The position numbers and the translations under genes are program-made. The notes below the pieces were generated by a model, which searched no databases, was not told where the DNA came from, and saw only the letters and a program-made list of their open reading frames with translations. From an uncultured Pseudomonadales bacterium (GTDB taxonomy: Bacteria > Patescibacteriota > Microgenomatia > UBA1400 > PJMF01): DNA of 64,000 bases. The stretch covers positions 11,703 to 75,702 of the forward strand of contig CAZNOF010000007.1 of assembly GCA_964574595.1 (NCBI GenBank), given 5' to 3'. Of the stretch, positions 8,401 to 13,521 are shown piece by piece. Each line of letters opens with the position of its first letter. The stretch's first letter is position 1.

Positions 8401-9435
8401 TTACTTGGCTACAGCCAGCTTCTGTAGAATGTCTTCAGTAATAACTTTGCCAAAATCACGGAAAAATCGAATAAAACCTTCGTCATGCTGAAATTTGCCA
8501 ATTGCTCCACCAATATACAGACCCGGCTGTTTTTTAGACTGATGCGCTTTATCCAAAACCAGTAAAGGATCATGATCCTCATGACTTACGTCCACCATCT
8601 CTTTAATTGGTTCAATATTTGGCGAAAACCCGGTACAGACAATTGGCCGACTGTTGACTATCATTTTTTCACCCGATTCATTCTCCAGCACAAATTTCTT
8701 CTCATCTGGCAAGTCGTAAATACGTTTGACTCGAAAGTTTTCTGTAATCGTAACCAGACCTTGTTTCTCAAGCTCTTGAATAAAATGCATCTGCTCTTTC
8801 CAGAGGCAGTCGATCGGTTCTGGGACTTCATACGTGCGGGAGACTACTAAATTAACTTTCCTCCCTGGTTTAGCCAGTTCGAGCACCACACTACTCGCGC
8901 CATTGGCACTCCCGACCACCGTGAACTCATCTCCATCTAACTTCTCCAGGTACGGCATGTGGGCATAATGGACATAGGCACCAGCACAATCCAAATCTTC
9001 ATTGGGTGTGGAGTACATACCCGCTGCCCAAACTATAAAACTGGAGGTTAACCGCCGATCGTCACGTAGCGTCACCACAAACTCTTTCAAATCCGGATTG
9101 AACATGACAGCTACCACCTCGGCATTCTTCTCAATAGGCAGGTGTTTCTTGGTCACAACATGCTCTAAATATTTCTGATAGAGCAAATGGCTGGGATGAG
9201 GAATATTCGGGAAAACTTCAGAGGTCGGAATGCCGGCAATCATGTTCTCATCGTGATGACCAGGGCGCTCAGTGCTTTCAGACAGGAGGTGGGTATCAGT
9301 CGGATAAATATACCAGGACTGACCGATATCGCCCTTTTCTAACACTATCACATCAATCTCGGCAGCCAGTAAGTCAGCAGCAACTGCCAGTCCGCCTGGA
9401 CCAGCTCCGATGACGATAACTGTATGATTCGGCAT
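8401..9435 (-). CDS. FAD-dependent pyridine nucleotide-disulfide oxidoreductase family protein (YpdA/CzcO-like, lacks a CxxC)
   Basis: N-terminal dinucleotide-binding motif VIVIGAGPGGLAVA. A second Rossmann motif (FTVVGSANGASS). Size 344 aa. No redox-active CxxC, so not a canonical TrxB. Confidence 0.7.
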   Translation of the reverse strand: MPNHTVIVIGAGPGGLAVAADLLAAEIDVIVLEKGDIGQSWYIYPTDTHLLSESTERPGHHDENMIAGIPTSEVFPNIPHPSHLLYQKYLEHVVTKKHLPIEKNAEVVAVMFNPDLKEFVVTLRDDRRLTSSFIVWAAGMYSTPNEDLDCAGAYVHYAHMPYLEKLDGDEFTVVGSANGASSVVLELAKPGRKVNLVVSRTYEVPEPIDCLWKEQMHFIQELEKQGLVTITENFRVKRIYDLPDEKKFVLENESGEKMIVNSRPIVCTGFSPNIEPIKEMVDVSHEDHDPLLVLDKAHQSKKQPGLYIGGAIGKFQHDEGFIRFFRDFGKVITEDILQKLAVAK

Positions 9436-9437
9436 AC

Positions 9438-9992
9438 CTAAAAAATTTCTTCTGCTAACGGTGTTTTCTCTATTAAAGTTTGGATGAATTTTTGGGTTCT
9501 GGTTTCTTGAGGTTTTTTGTAAAGCAGGTAGGTGCCGATTACTTTTTTGATTTCTTCCTCGTCACTTTCCGTAATAATCAGTTTGCGGTATCTAGTTAGA
9601 GAAACGAGATCCCTATAGTAGAGAAAATGGGTTTTGCTGCGCACTTCAAACCAGAACTGACTTAACTGCGGCCAGTAGACATATTGGTCTTCAACCTTAA
9701 TTCCGAGGGTCGTTATTTTGCAGTTTAAGTAGGTCGGTTTTGAACGTAGGTGAACTAATAAAAGAACTGATCCAGACAAAAAGACGAGAAATAAAAGTGG
9801 ATCACCAAGCAATAACAGAATTAAACTCAGTAGGGCAATAAAGAGAACGAACTGAACAAACTCAGATCTTTTCCACTCTTTTTGCACTTTGCTAGGGGTT
9901 TTCCACTCAAAAAGCGTTTTTTCCTGAACCACATACCGATCGACCCCATATGGGTCAACGTAATACTGATCAGGAAATTTCTTTTCGGTCAC
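9438..9992 (-). CDS. hypothetical membrane protein (two transmembrane segments, charged C-terminal region)
   Basis: Hydrophobic hairpin FVLFIALLSLILLLLGDPLLFLVFLSGSVLLLV. Abuts the oxidoreductase gene by 2 nt, so likely the same operon. Confidence 0.5.
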   Translation of the reverse strand: MTEKKFPDQYYVDPYGVDRYVVQEKTLFEWKTPSKVQKEWKRSEFVQFVLFIALLSLILLLLGDPLLFLVFLSGSVLLLVHLRSKPTYLNCKITTLGIKVEDQYVYWPQLSQFWFEVRSKTHFLYYRDLVSLTRYRKLIITESDEEEIKKVIGTYLLYKKPQETRTQKFIQTLIEKTPLAEEIF

Positions 9993-10034
9993 AATCTTAT
10001 CTTAGAGCATTCTGAACAGAATGACAAACCCAGC

Positions 10035-10066
10035 AAAAAGCCGCCCATCAAGAGCGGCTTTTTTTA
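10035..10066. terminator. bidirectional-looking Rho-independent terminator (AAGCCGC-9 nt loop-GCGGCTT, flanked by an A-run and a T-run)
   Basis: 7-bp GC stem with a T-run on the plus side and an A-run on the other. Sits 10 nt downstream of the minus-strand micro-ORF 10076..10168. Confidence 0.5.
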
Positions 10067-10075
10067 TTTCAACAT

Positions 10076-10168
10076 CTATTCATCGAGAGGTTCATCGTCG
10101 CCTTCTTGCAGGCTATCATCTTGATCATCCTTAATGAAATAGACTTTTTCATTTGGTATGAACGTCAT
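10076..10168 (-). CDS. small acidic protein, 30 aa (MTFIPNEKVYFIKDDQDDSLQEGDDEPLDE)
   Basis: Consensus AAAGGAGG ribosome-binding site 4 nt upstream of the ATG. TAG stop followed 10 nt later by a terminator hairpin. Not on the ORF track (under 60 aa). Confidence 0.4.
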   Translation of the reverse strand: MTFIPNEKVYFIKDDQDDSLQEGDDEPLDE

Positions 10169-10219
10169 TTGACCTCCTTTTATAATACTGTTCGATAATA
10201 CGTTCCAAAGATAAATATT

Positions 10220-10249
10220 TGACGTTAGATCAGTAAGAAGAGTGTAATA
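10220..10249 (+). promoter_or_regulatory. putative sigma70-type promoter for the response-regulator gene (TTGACG, 18 bp spacer, TGTAAT)
   Basis: -35 TTGACG at 10220-10225 and a -10-like TGTAAT at 10244-10249, about 50 nt upstream of the ATG at 10300. Sequence inspection only. Confidence 0.3.
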
Positions 10250-10299
10250 AAGATCACAATTCGTTTGCTCTCACCAGATCTTCTTGGTACAATCGGCTC

Positions 10300-10971
10300 A
10301 TGATCTATTCTATTTTGATTGTTGAAGACGATCCAGGTGTTCAAAAGTTTCTCAAAGAATTACTTTTGGATAATGGCTTTTCTGTTCAACTCGCCAATGA
10401 TGGAATTGAAGCAATCGAGCATATTCAAAAGGCTCAACCTGATCTAGTGATCCTAGATTTAGGTCTTCCCAAGATTTCTGGCGAAGCCGTCGTCTCAGAA
10501 ATTCGCAAAAATTATCCAGAATTACGAGTCATTATTTTATCTGCTAAAGACACAATCAATGATGTGGTGCAAGGTTTGAGTTTAGGCGCAGACGACTACA
10601 TGACCAAACCATTTATGTCGGATGAGCTGTTAGCGAGAATTAAGGCTCGTTTAAAACGCATCAATGGCAACACCCAAGAAATCGTAGTTGGTGACTTGAC
10701 TCTTAACAGCCAATCCATGCAAGTAACTCGGGCCGGTCAAGAAATTCAGTTGACTCCCCAAGAATTTAAATTGCTCCAGTACTTAATGAATAATAAGGGA
10801 CAGATCTTAACCCGCGAAATGATTTTAAATAGAATTTGGATGTACTCCCCAGATATTGAAACCCGCGTAGTAGATGTCTATATGGGGTATTTACGCAAGA
10901 AAATTGATAAGAACTTTGACAAACCACTTCTCCATTATGTCCGCGGTTTTGGCTACGTGATTAAAGATTAA
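10300..10971 (+). CDS. OmpR-family response regulator (receiver plus winged-helix DNA-binding domain)
   Basis: Receiver motifs (LIVEDD, DLVILDLGLP, KDT) and a C-terminal trans_reg_C winged helix (LTPQEFKLLQYLMNN...YVRGFGY). Confidence 0.9.
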   Translation: MIYSILIVEDDPGVQKFLKELLLDNGFSVQLANDGIEAIEHIQKAQPDLVILDLGLPKISGEAVVSEIRKNYPELRVIILSAKDTINDVVQGLSLGADDYMTKPFMSDELLARIKARLKRINGNTQEIVVGDLTLNSQSMQVTRAGQEIQLTPQEFKLLQYLMNNKGQILTREMILNRIWMYSPDIETRVVDVYMGYLRKKIDKNFDKPLLHYVRGFGYVIKD

Positions 10972-12119
10972 TCTAGATCAGTTCGTCGCAAACGAATCGT
11001 CACTTTTGTACCTTTTTTTGAAGATGAGATGGCAATTCTGCCATGATGTTGATTGAGGATCATTTTGACTAGATACAAACCCAGACCCATTCCCTCAGCT
11101 GTATCCGTTGTGGTGCTTTTGTAGAACTCTTCAAATACGTGAGGTAAATCTTTCTTGGGAATCCCCACCCCTTTATCTATTATTTCAACATTGATGTATG
11201 GCTCTTCCGCATAAACATCAATTTGAATAGGGCTTAATCTTGGCGAAAATTTTCGAGCATTATCTAAGATATTGTCAAAAACTTGCTCCAACTTTTGAGC
11301 ATCCCCAATTACCACATCTTTTCCTGGTTCTAGGAGACTGGTAATTTTGACTGGTCGCAGAGCATCTGAAAAATGGAACGAAATTATTGAGCGCTCGAGA
11401 ACCTCCAAAACATGACATTCTTGCCATTTAAATTCCAACTTGCCTGACTTAATGTTATGCGTTTGCATCATGTCGTTAATTAAATTGTTCATTCGTTTGG
11501 TTTCGGTCAGTAAATTCTTCACCCAACCCGCTTCTTGGCTTTCATTTTTACCCAAACGCGTGTCCAGTAACTGAACATATCCGCTGACAGTAGTCAGTGG
11601 TGTCTTCAACTCATGTGCTGCCATCGACGTAAAAATATCCCTGATCTTCAACGACTTTTGGTTCTCTTCATAGAGCTGGGCTTTACGAATGGCCAACGTG
11701 GCCAGTGAGCCAAAGGCTTTCAATCCCTCAAGTTCTTGCTCTTCCAGAACGTGCGTGTTTTGGGTGTGAATGAGTAAAATTCCAAACGATTTCTTTTGGT
11801 AAAAAAGTGGCACCAACACAATAAAGTTCTTTGAATCAATTTCATGAATCAGGGCCATTTTATTTTTAAACGCCTGATACGTAAATTCGTCTTCAATATA
11901 CTCACCTGTGTCCTGAGAGTTGGTGGCGTAAGCTCGTTTCAGCTCGCCATTCTTATCAGCTAACAAAATAAAACCATCGGACCCATCGAGCAGGTCAAGT
12001 GCTTGATGGGCGATGGTTTCTAAAGTTTGAGATAAACTAATTGGTTCTAAAAATCTTAGTGCTGCCGAATTAATATGTTGTAGGGAAATTCCCATTGGCA
12101 TAATTCTCTCTTCATTCAT
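10968..12119 (-). CDS. cytoplasmic sensor histidine kinase with an N-terminal GAF domain (no transmembrane segment)
   Basis: HisKA H-box (MAAHELKTPLTTVSGYVQLL). HATPase_c N, G1 and G2 boxes (DNARKFSP, DKGVGIP, GMGLGL). GAF-like N-terminal 170 aa. Convergent with the response regulator, overlapping by 4 nt (TTAA). Confidence 0.85.
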   Translation of the reverse strand: MNEERIMPMGISLQHINSAALRFLEPISLSQTLETIAHQALDLLDGSDGFILLADKNGELKRAYATNSQDTGEYIEDEFTYQAFKNKMALIHEIDSKNFIVLVPLFYQKKSFGILLIHTQNTHVLEEQELEGLKAFGSLATLAIRKAQLYEENQKSLKIRDIFTSMAAHELKTPLTTVSGYVQLLDTRLGKNESQEAGWVKNLLTETKRMNNLINDMMQTHNIKSGKLEFKWQECHVLEVLERSIISFHFSDALRPVKITSLLEPGKDVVIGDAQKLEQVFDNILDNARKFSPRLSPIQIDVYAEEPYINVEIIDKGVGIPKKDLPHVFEEFYKSTTTDTAEGMGLGLYLVKMILNQHHGRIAISSSKKGTKVTIRLRRTDLD

Positions 12120-12209
12120 CTAAAATAGATGGAATACATTACTCAGCACCCAGATTAAGACCAGGAGGCCAAAGGGAACTCCCAGTAGCCAAGCTAAAAA
12201 GTATTTCAT
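12120..12209 (-). CDS. hydrophobic micro-ORF, 29 aa (MKYFLAWLLGVPFGLLVLIWVLSNVFHLF), translationally coupled to the GAF histidine kinase
   Basis: ATG preceded by a GAAGGG ribosome-binding site about 8 nt upstream. TAG stop directly abuts the ATG of the kinase (TAGATG). Single predicted transmembrane helix. Not on the ORF track (under 60 aa). Confidence 0.4.
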   Translation of the reverse strand: MKYFLAWLLGVPFGLLVLIWVLSNVFHLF

Positions 12210-12230
12210 AGGAAGCCCTTCACTTTCAAA

Positions 12231-12494
12231 CTATTTAATTTTTTTCTTTAACTCATCTGCTGCTTTTTCAGCTTTACCACTCATGTCGTCCACTTGAGAC
12301 TTCACATCATCCATTTTGTCTTCAGCTTCCGAGCGGAGTTTCTCTGCTTTATCACCAGCTTGGTTCAGAGTTTCCATTACTTTGTCACGATTTTTTTTAT
12401 CGCTTAAGGCAACTGCAACTGCTCCAACGGCTGCTCCAACTGCGCCAACAACGAGCGGATTCACACCGTTTCCTGTTTGTTTCTTGTCATTCAT
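12231..12494 (-). CDS. YtxH-like / general stress protein (Gly-Ala-rich hydrophobic N-terminus, coiled-coil C-terminus)
   Basis: PLVVGAVGAAVGAVAVALSDKKNRDKV followed by a charged coiled region (DKAEKLRSEAEDKMDDVKSQVDD), typical of small stress proteins of this family. Confidence 0.5.
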   Translation of the reverse strand: MNDKKQTGNGVNPLVVGAVGAAVGAVAVALSDKKNRDKVMETLNQAGDKAEKLRSEAEDKMDDVKSQVDDMSGKAEKAADELKKKIK

Positions 12495-12532
12495 AGTGTT
12501 CTTTCTGCTCTATTAGTAATTGAGCTCAAATA

Positions 12533-12787
12533 TTAAGCGGTTCGACGGAGTAATCTGCCGAGCCAAATCACAATTACGGCTCCAACTGTGGAGACGATCA
12601 AGCTGTAAATGTTAAAACCTGTCACACCGGCTTGGCCGAAAAAATTCATCACAAAGCCACCAACCACGGAACCCACAATTCCTAAGATGATGTCCATTAA
12701 TGTTCCTTGACTGGCATCCGTCTTCATAATCATTGATGCCAACCATCCAGCCACACCCCCTAAGATAATCCACAGTAGTATGTTCAT
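12533..12787 (-). CDS. GlsB/YeaQ/YmgE family transglycosylase-associated stress protein
   Basis: Characteristic Gly-rich transmembrane hairpins (ILGGVAGWLASMIM...ILGIVGSVVGGFVMNFFG...IVSTVGAVIVIWLGRLL). Confidence 0.75.
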   Translation of the reverse strand: MNILLWIILGGVAGWLASMIMKTDASQGTLMDIILGIVGSVVGGFVMNFFGQAGVTGFNIYSLIVSTVGAVIVIWLGRLLRRTA

Positions 12788-12900
12788 ATCTCACCAACCT
12801 TTCTGCTTTTTATCTAGCTATATATAATGTTGTGTTCATTGTGAAACAGTTCAGTGAAAAGTCGGACACAGGCAAGTAAGGAGAATGTAAGAAAGATGAG

Positions 12901-13494
12901 CTACACGACCGCTTTAGAGTCACCAACTTGCTCGATGTTGTCTAATAGATCTGGTGTAGACACCTTTGTCACATCAACTTTATTCATCACCCCAACCATT
13001 AATCCTTGAATGATTCGTCTCGCTTTTTGGGCTTCTGCTTTTGGTAAGTAGTTGACGACAAGAGGTGGTGCATTTGGAATTCGGGAGACAAAGCGAATTA
13101 ACCCAAAGAACATGCTTGATTCTGTTTCACACGAGGAAATATCAGAGATGAGTAAGCTCTGAATATCGCTCGATCCAAAAAACAGCGTGTTCTTAATATT
13201 CACTTTGGTCTTTTCGATAATAATCTCTGTTGGAAACAGTTTGAAAGGAAAAACGGTCTTGACTGACATCAACACTGGCTGTTCATCTTTCGCTAAATTC
13301 TGCAGCTGAGACACCGCAATCGCTTGCTCCTCTTGCTGTTTATTTTCTTGATCTGCAGAAATTGGCTGAGCCTCGCGGTTGCTTGGTAAGTCCTCAACAT
13401 CTTGAATAGTATTATTGACAAAGACAGTACCTTGTTTGGTCATAAGAACCTTTTCTAATAACATTGTATGCGCCTTGTGAACGAATAAGGTCAA
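12901..13494 (-). CDS. hypothetical protein (197 aa)
   Basis: Long ORF with TAG stop. No family recognised. The start may be at an internal Met (MLLEKV or MTKQG). Confidence 0.4.
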   Translation of the reverse strand: MTLFVHKAHTMLLEKVLMTKQGTVFVNNTIQDVEDLPSNREAQPISADQENKQQEEQAIAVSQLQNLAKDEQPVLMSVKTVFPFKLFPTEIIIEKTKVNIKNTLFFGSSDIQSLLISDISSCETESSMFFGLIRFVSRIPNAPPLVVNYLPKAEAQKARRIIQGLMVGVMNKVDVTKVSTPDLLDNIEQVGDSKAVV

Positions 13495-13521
13495 GGTTAT
13501 GTAAGAATTGGGTAAGCTCTG

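Follow-up and report, generated by a model that had tools for sequence, protein, structure and literature searches.

A 29-residue hydrophobic peptide encoded beside a GAF histidine kinase in a Microgenomates genome appears to belong to an undescribed family of stress-associated mini-proteins

The open reading frame (ORF) at positions 12120-12209 of a 64,000-nucleotide stretch of a contig from an uncultured bacterium of the Microgenomatia (Patescibacteriota), hereafter the window, encodes a hydrophobic peptide of 29 amino acids (aa) just upstream of the gene for a GAF-domain histidine kinase. Its conservation and the pattern of its codon changes show that this micro-ORF is a genuine gene, on which strong purifying selection acts. 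The peptide it encodes belongs to a widespread, unmodelled and mostly unannotated family of single-helix membrane peptides of 23-30 residues, and this family travels with general-stress genes and not with kinases. The explanation that we favour as a whole, with reasonable but by no means full confidence, is that of a genuine stress-associated peptide of an undescribed family, which is an output of the two-component system rather than an anchor of its kinase. Tiny hydrophobic proteins encoded in stress loci are familiar as a type; the family itself appears to be undescribed. The gene and its ribosome-binding region are as follows.

12120..12209, minus strand: micro-ORF of 29 aa, MKYFLAWLLGVPFGLLVLIWVLSNVFHLF, with its TAG stop at 12122-12120 (from the ORF list and the sequence).
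12221-12216, minus strand: Shine-Dalgarno-like GAAGGG, six nucleotides (nt) before the ATG of the micro-ORF (read directly).

The ORF, the GAAGGG site and the abutment of its TAG with an ATG are all in the sequence as the first-pass annotation of this DNA had described them. The peptide is a single hydrophobic helix with a highest 19-residue Kyte-Doolittle mean of 2.47; it carries the motif Y-x-x-AWLLGVP, and only 2-7 residues fall outside the hydrophobic core. Conservation of the micro-ORF upstream of orthologous GAF kinases had been named as a check on its reality, and the ORF proved to be kept in five loci including the window. The other four (L001, L004, L005 and L144) encode kinases 51-66% identical to the window kinase, and at each of them an ORF of 29 codons separates the YtxH-like gene from the kinase gene. 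The products of these ORFs are as follows.

L001: MKYFLAWLLGVPFGLLVLIWILSHVLHLF
L004: MKYFIAWLLGVPFSLLVLIWVLSHVFHLF
L005: MKYFLAWLLGVPFGLLVLIWVVSRVFHIF
L144: MKYFLGWLIGVPFGLLVLIWVLSNVFHLF

Shine-Dalgarno-like sequences (AAAGGA, GGAG or AAGGAG) precede the relatives' copies of the gene. Gene callers left the gene uncalled in all four of these loci, and an exact look-up of the window peptide returned no record, meaning that this sequence has been called by no gene caller.

Selection was measured on the orthologs of the window, L001, L004 and L005. Among these the peptide is 83-90% identical, compared with 50-70% for the kinase and 45-59% for the YtxH-like protein of the same loci. Pairs of peptide genes differ by 9-16 synonymous against 3-5 non-synonymous changes, with a non-synonymous divergence (dN) of 0.07-0.11 and a synonymous divergence (dS) that is at least 1.4 or saturated. 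The reading frame is therefore maintained with a strong synonymous excess, which answers the second doubt raised in the first-pass annotation. It is because the ORF is conserved in five loci and its changes are synonymous-biased that we regard it as a real gene.

The relatives of the peptide extend far beyond this lineage, and share the motif M(G)KY-x-x-AWLLGVP. As members of the family we counted free-standing ORFs of 23-31 codons that start 1-3 codons before Y-x-x-AWLLGVP and continue as one hydrophobic helix; the window peptide has this ORF layout, motif and helix, and is in addition under purifying selection at the protein level. A first profile, which combined the window peptide with three orthologs (the first row of the alignment being a 52-aa extended ORF from L005), retrieved 349 short "hypothetical" proteins, one of them from Burkholderia dolosa. 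A scan of genomes with a degenerate DNA pattern for Y-x-x-AWLLGVP-x-x-L, taking one genome per species, gave at least 120 loci, which are an arbitrary sample. The motif lay in an open reading frame in 120 of the 120 matches listed, and 108 of these were stand-alone ORFs of 23-30 codons starting 1-3 codons before the motif; most of the remaining ones had an N-terminal extension of 10-25 residues. In a Bacteriovoracaceae locus (L057, 6707-7177), the AWLLGVP module forms the C-terminal end of a 156-aa protein. Carriers among the matches listed include Burkholderia, Methylophilaceae, Nitrosomonas, Thiobacillus, Dyella, Rudaea, Dokdonella, Coxiellaceae and Ectothiorhodospiraceae, as well as Acidobacteriota, Planctomycetota, Verrucomicrobia, Bdellovibrionota, Myxococcota, Rokubacteria and Nitrospirota. 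With a profile of 26 members, the window peptide included, 855 cluster representatives were found at E≤1e-3 among 1.84 billion representatives; the best 150 of the 855 were all no longer than 116 aa, and in nearly all of them the match spanned either the full length of the protein or its C-terminal end. About nine phyla contain the family, and the columns Y3, A6, W7, L9, G10, V11 and P12 are invariant across 61 diverse members. As a separate observation, the Bdellovibrionota loci L060, L064, L075, L098 and L106 share a hydrophilic N-terminal extension of about 20 residues that ends in G-x-I/V-G-Y.

Despite these seven positions being invariant across phyla, the family goes uncalled by standard annotation and is represented by no Pfam or NCBIfam model: none of the models in the two collections matched the window peptide or nine diverse relatives. 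The gene is left uncalled by PGAP and is unannotated in RefSeq records of Legionella and Burkholderia, and a tblastn search of annotated plasmids found five copies, none of them annotated. In metagenomes, the strict pattern MKYF.AWLLGVPF had no match, and a looser pattern gave 12 loci, none of which has an adjacent kinase. Among solved structures there was no relative, the sole return being a chance match of eight residues in a cathepsin signal peptide. With the family, the tiny and poorly understood hydrophobic proteins found alongside CsbD and BON stress genes gain a member that is well defined, and since its carriers include culturable hosts, its function can be tested there.

The genes that keep company with the family were examined by a Pfam scan of the 114 nearest same-strand neighbours of peptide genes at the loci listed. 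The neighbours belonged most often to CsbD (18/114), BON (9/114), PRC-barrel (4/114) and DUF3309 (3/114), and to HisKA/HATPase in 2/114. A BON-CsbD-peptide operon is common to Burkholderia and Xanthomonadales, and DUF3309, DUF1328, CsbD and PRC-barrel genes lie nearby in Legionella, Coxiellaceae and metagenome loci, so that the pattern of stress-gene neighbours recurs in several orders. A kinase gene was within 3.5 kb in 15 of the 120 non-Patescibacteria loci listed, and was rarely adjacent; by a rough estimate, made with no computed background, this is about the chance level. The genes downstream of the peptide vary widely across the 120 loci listed. Because the family elsewhere usually stands beside stress genes, the position of the peptide gene next to a kinase gene in the window looks like a local operon layout, and not a sign of kinase anchoring.

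The immediate neighbour of the peptide gene in Legionellales, Coxiellaceae and other loci is often a gene for a recurrent membrane protein of 190-350 aa with the motif ...SW.AI.AGA...G..FLLN.F..AIGL..., which is possibly a partner of the peptide. It was not among the top 25 Pfam families of the adjacent genes, with at least five copies scanned. Its copies are at these positions.

L014, 3555-4235: recurrent membrane protein.
L034, 2867-3439: recurrent membrane protein.
L071, 928-1587: recurrent membrane protein.
L092, 1358-2011: recurrent membrane protein.
L093, 4562-5131: recurrent membrane protein.
L128, 2630-3247: recurrent membrane protein.
L131, 3068-3712: recurrent membrane protein.
L142, 4852-5496: recurrent membrane protein.
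L132, 2535-3518: longer form.
L133, 2703-3596: longer form.
L134, 6800-7864: longer form.

In the window, the peptide gene is part of a set of minus-strand genes which face a response regulator gene on the plus strand.

12533..12787, minus strand: Transgly_assoc (GlsB/YeaQ/YmgE) membrane protein of 84 aa (Pfam, 54 bits; NCBIfam PRK10457).
12231..12494, minus strand: small YtxH-like protein (87 aa), separated by 21 nt from the micro-ORF that follows it (Pfam YtxH, E=1.3e-5).
12102..12119, minus strand: spacer of 18 nt between the stop of the micro-ORF and the probable start of the kinase, with the purine-rich GAAGAGAGA at 12113-12105.
10968..12101, minus strand: GAF-HisKA-HATPase_c histidine kinase of 377 aa (Pfam), with its probable start ATG at 12101-12099.
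10300..10971, plus strand: OmpR/PhoB-type response regulator of 223 aa (Pfam Response_reg and Trans_reg_C).

The peptide gene does sit in the stress-gene surroundings that had been reported for it; the YtxH match is weak at 26 bits, under the Pfam gathering cut-off. The Transgly_assoc gene is probably the first gene of the operon, and no terminator-like site was found between the Transgly_assoc, YtxH-like, peptide and kinase genes. An Rfam search of the window returned no RNA family. The YtxH-like gene is syntenic in L001, L004, L005 and L144, and the Transgly_assoc gene is likewise syntenic in the relatives.

The closest homologs of the kinase are from Patescibacteria with Microgenomates-type names, such as Daviesbacteria and Levybacteria, and the regulator is 88-95% identical among the relatives. 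The regulator gene is indeed convergent with the kinase gene, with a 3' overlap of 4 nt at 10968-10971, as had been noted earlier. A convergent arrangement is unusual for a two-component pair. Here, the tail-to-tail layout recurred in every ortholog locus examined, the two genes abutting or overlapping by 0-11 nt, as in the following relatives.

L004, 2263-2273: 3' overlap of the kinase and regulator genes.
L005, 5133-5143: 3' overlap of the kinase and regulator genes.
L143, 4175-4185: 3' overlap of the kinase and regulator genes.

As the 3' ends overlap or abut, the transcripts of the kinase and regulator genes must overlap or end within each other's coding ends.

By aligning two intergenic regions, one upstream of the Transgly_assoc gene and the other the divergent region at the regulator gene, across four loci, we found a conserved direct-repeat box, TTACA-N5-CTTAC, in the following copies.

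12876..12890, minus strand: box TTACATTCTCCTTAC, in which TTAC recurs after 11 bp, ahead of the Transgly_assoc-YtxH-peptide-kinase operon.
10233..10247, minus strand: second copy TTACACTCTTCTTAC, located where the regulator gene diverges from an acidic small ORF / 184-aa gene.
13501-13515, minus strand: copy with one mismatch, just upstream of a conserved gene for 197 aa.

The exact box has two matches in the 64-kb window against 0.14 expected, and 0 of 100 shuffles reached two. L001, L004 and L005 have it at both of these positions as well. In L143, boxes lie before the cluster that contains the Transgly_assoc gene, before the operon that contains the kinase gene and at the divergent promoter of the regulator gene, and copies were also found in L003 and L006. 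Direct repeats of TTAC at 11-bp spacing have the geometry of sites of the OmpR/PhoB family. The box is therefore a putative binding site of the OmpR-type regulator, and its positions suggest that the two-component system may drive the stress operon. Together, the soluble GAF kinase, the OmpR-type regulator and the conserved direct-repeat box would make up a compact candidate stress regulon in a bacterium of the Candidate Phyla Radiation, a group for which, to our knowledge, almost no regulation has been described.

A paralogous GAF kinase, P0040 (L006, 4001-5254), which is 40% identical to the window kinase, bears its own N-terminal transmembrane helix, MTFFLHISYILLIIFLLAIAIIFILIMM. Its locus carries a second GAF kinase and two TTACA-N5-CTTAC boxes. 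We considered whether the helix of P0040 might be a Rosetta-stone fusion of the peptide with a kinase and rejected the idea, as the motif is absent from the helix and no family member is present at the P0040 locus.

It had been proposed that the peptide and the kinase are translationally coupled through a TAGATG junction. The junction is present in the sequence, since the longest ORF of the kinase (10968-12119, 383 aa) opens at ATG 12119-12117 directly after the TAG of the micro-ORF. As the start of the kinase that is used, it probably does not hold, because the conserved ATG lies 18 nt downstream. No record of the 383-aa form exists in a collection of 15 billion proteins, whereas the 377-aa form is on record from the NCBI source genome, and when the DNA of the window was aligned with that of three syntenic relatives, the ATG at 12101-12099 coincided with the start codons of the relatives' kinases. 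On account of this record and of the aligned start codons, the 18-nt spacer is the likeliest, and the kinase is probably translated from ATG 12101-12099. The spacer between peptide and kinase is 21-29 nt in the relatives, and the kinase start is preceded by a weak Shine-Dalgarno-like sequence. The coupling through TAGATG is likely an artefact of choosing the longest ORF, which shows that a stop-start abutment drawn from the longest ORF may mislead on translational coupling.

The statement that the kinase has no transmembrane segment was correct. It contains only GAF, HisKA and HATPase_c, and its hydropathy (Kyte-Doolittle mean over 19 residues) peaks at 1.58 within the GAF domain, as against 2.47 for the peptide; there is no convincing transmembrane segment. 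This leads to the question of tethering. The peptide could be a lineage-specific modulator of the soluble GAF kinase, which it might also bring to the membrane, with a feedback similar to that of MgrB or SafA on PhoQ. The peptide gene stands immediately upstream of the kinase gene in five loci despite divergence of the kinases to 51-66% identity, the putative regulator box upstream of the operon would supply the feedback wiring, and some paralogous kinases, such as P0040, bear their own N-terminal helix, so that membrane association does occur in this kinase family. However, the five loci are syntenic as a whole block, from the glycogen phosphorylase gene to the DsbD-like gene, and the adjacency of two genes within it therefore carries little information. 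In a more distant locus (L143, kinase 46% identical), a 65-aa ORF and a short-chain dehydrogenase gene intervene between the kinase gene and the peptide gene, MKYVIAWLLGVPAGLLFLIWIATHLLPK, which lies 1.2 kb upstream. Another (L003, kinase 55% identical) has no member of the family within 4 kb. The peptide start is 1 nt from the YtxH-like stop in L004 and L005, closer than the gap between peptide and kinase. The helix of P0040 is without the family motif, and elsewhere the family seldom adjoins kinases. An intramembrane contact of the MgrB or SafA type would have no counterpart here, because the peptide is almost all hydrophobic, with 2-7 residues outside the core, and the kinase is without a membrane segment. 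The proposal of the first-pass annotation that the peptide tethers or regulates the kinase was not supported, considering that kinases make up only 2 of the 114 neighbours, that the linkage is loose in L143 and L003 and that the TAGATG junction is probably unused, and we judge a role as lineage-specific modulator to be unlikely.

Several known small proteins resemble the peptide in one respect or another. DUF3309 (PF11752), DUF1328/YtjA, Transgly_assoc GlsB/YeaQ/YmgE (PF04226) and the lmo0937 family are, like the peptide, very short and almost all hydrophobic, and are encoded beside CsbD, BON and PRC-barrel genes in many phyla; DUF3309, DUF1328 and Transgly_assoc genes even occur in the same loci as the peptide gene. 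However, the peptide has no sequence similarity to these stress families and no Pfam or NCBIfam match, it is shorter (23-30 aa, one helix), it has its own invariant Y-x-x-AWLLGVP and it is usually uncalled. With MgrB and SafA it has in common that it is a small membrane peptide; here it may be co-transcribed with a kinase under the cognate regulator in the style of a feedback. MgrB and SafA act on a transmembrane kinase, PhoQ, via membrane or periplasmic contacts. The kinase in the window has no transmembrane or periplasmic part, there is no sequence similarity or model match, and the peptide family elsewhere is not kinase-linked.

The peptide also resembles CydX / YbgT_YccB (PF08173), which is of similar size and has an N-terminal aromatic-A-W-[IL]-L-G at the start of its single helix. 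We rejected CydX as its identity: the Pfam score was 10.6 bits against a cut-off of 26.2, and even that was reached in only 1-2 of 10 members, while hhalign aligned nine columns at 23% probability. Cytochrome bd (cydAB) genes were not among the top 25 families of the 114 adjacent genes, and none is annotated in the window at 8401-13494. KdpF, for which Pfam includes a model, likewise has about 29 aa and one helix, and its gene comes first in a set whose last genes encode a two-component system. However, the window peptide matched no Pfam family at E≤0.1 and no kdpABC genes are nearby. The kinase, in contrast to KdpD, has no KdpD sensor part, and its score with the NCBIfam KdpD model is 109 bits against a cut-off of 1123, from the GAF and catalytic regions only. 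The neighbours here are Transgly_assoc, YtxH-like and GAF kinase genes, which does not agree with membership in KdpF.

According to the explanation that we favour, the peptide would insert in the membrane with Lys2 at the cytoplasmic face, its helix would be kinked at the invariant Gly-Val-Pro, and it would act inside the bilayer during stress. Since the N-terminal motif is invariant, it may have one specific conserved partner, a protein or a lipid, which in most lineages would not be a histidine kinase. In this Microgenomates lineage, the gene lies in an operon of Transgly_assoc, YtxH-like, peptide and GAF kinase genes, and the soluble GAF kinase and the OmpR-type regulator would switch on a small stress regulon that includes the peptide gene and the kinase gene itself. 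The peptide would then be an output of the two-component system and not its anchor. Some points weigh against this explanation or lessen the evidence for it. In all five loci whose kinases are at least 51% identical and which retain a YtxH-like gene, the peptide gene immediately precedes the kinase gene, as a lineage-specific link would also have it. The neighbour genes of unannotated loci were taken from a simple gene caller with codon-position GC scoring against shadow ORFs, and the neighbour counts are not phylogenetically independent, many of the CsbD and BON cases being from Burkholderia and Xanthomonadales. The assignment of the box to the regulator has conservation, position and repeat geometry as its sole basis, and the literature search found no paper with the motif and nothing relevant on CsbD or BON small proteins.

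That Y, A, W, L, G, V and P do not vary across phyla would also fit an obligate subunit of a small membrane complex in the manner of CydX, KdpF or AcrZ, as it implies a specific contact. The partner would be encoded alongside: the Transgly_assoc or YtxH-like protein in the window, and the recurrent membrane protein of 190-350 aa in Legionellales and Coxiellaceae. The occurrence of this one protein type beside the peptide gene in many low-GC loci, the 1-nt spacing or overlap between the YtxH-like stop and the peptide gene in L004 and L005, and the Bacteriovoracaceae protein with the module fused at its C-terminus are consistent with such a complex. However, none of the partner families accompanies the peptide in every lineage, the solved structures include no relative, and the likeness to CydX is limited to the nine columns found by hhalign, with no cydAB genes adjacent. 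We consider a complex subunit improbable, if still credible. A combination of these readings, in which the peptide is a universal membrane component of the stress response with one partner and in this lineage also reports the state of the membrane to the GAF kinase, by recruitment or rare readthrough, seems to us quite improbable. If true, it would mean that a genome-reduced organism has a membrane sensor built from a 29-residue peptide.

Two further readings concern the short gap between the genes, and both were given very little weight. Readthrough of the stop codon could give a membrane-anchored kinase, or the two genes could be the relic of a split fused gene. The spacer is a multiple of three, and the two ORFs are thus in one frame, at four of the five loci (window, L004, L005 and L144), which has a chance probability of about 0.045; in three of these four there is a single intervening stop. 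However, the two ORFs of L001 are in different frames, a second in-frame stop occurs in L005, and the stops, TAG or TAA, have no context in common. In all other phyla the family stands free, and no kinase homolog has the motif at its N-terminus. Readthrough or ancestral fusion was dropped as a conserved mechanism because of the frame of L001 and the two stops of L005; the shared frame is a curiosity, and this reading is very unlikely. We give hardly any credence to a cis-acting upstream ORF, the translation of which alone would load ribosomes onto the kinase start while the peptide itself has no function. The gap of 18-29 nt and the weak Shine-Dalgarno-like sequence before the kinase start are in keeping with it, but the amino acid sequence is under strong purifying selection and the peptide is conserved across phyla at loci without a kinase, whereas such an ORF would encode a peptide that is free to vary and always tied to the same downstream gene.

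Two other small features of the window lie next to the boxes.

12901..13494, minus strand: conserved gene upstream of the operon, its product of 180-197 aa across loci, present in all four syntenic loci.
10076-10168, minus strand: second conserved mini-gene, acidic, of 30 aa, MTFIPNEKVYFIKDDQDDSLQEGDDEPLDE, which follows closely on the second box and has GGAGG as its ribosome-binding site.

The 197-aa product of the former had no Pfam or NCBIfam match. As its relatives begin near MIKSGTVFVN, the TTG start listed for it is probably too far upstream. The acidic mini-gene has orthologs of 34-50 aa in L001, L004 and L005, which share the N-terminal sequence M-S-x-x-P/S-N/H-T-K/N-V-Y-F-I-K/R.

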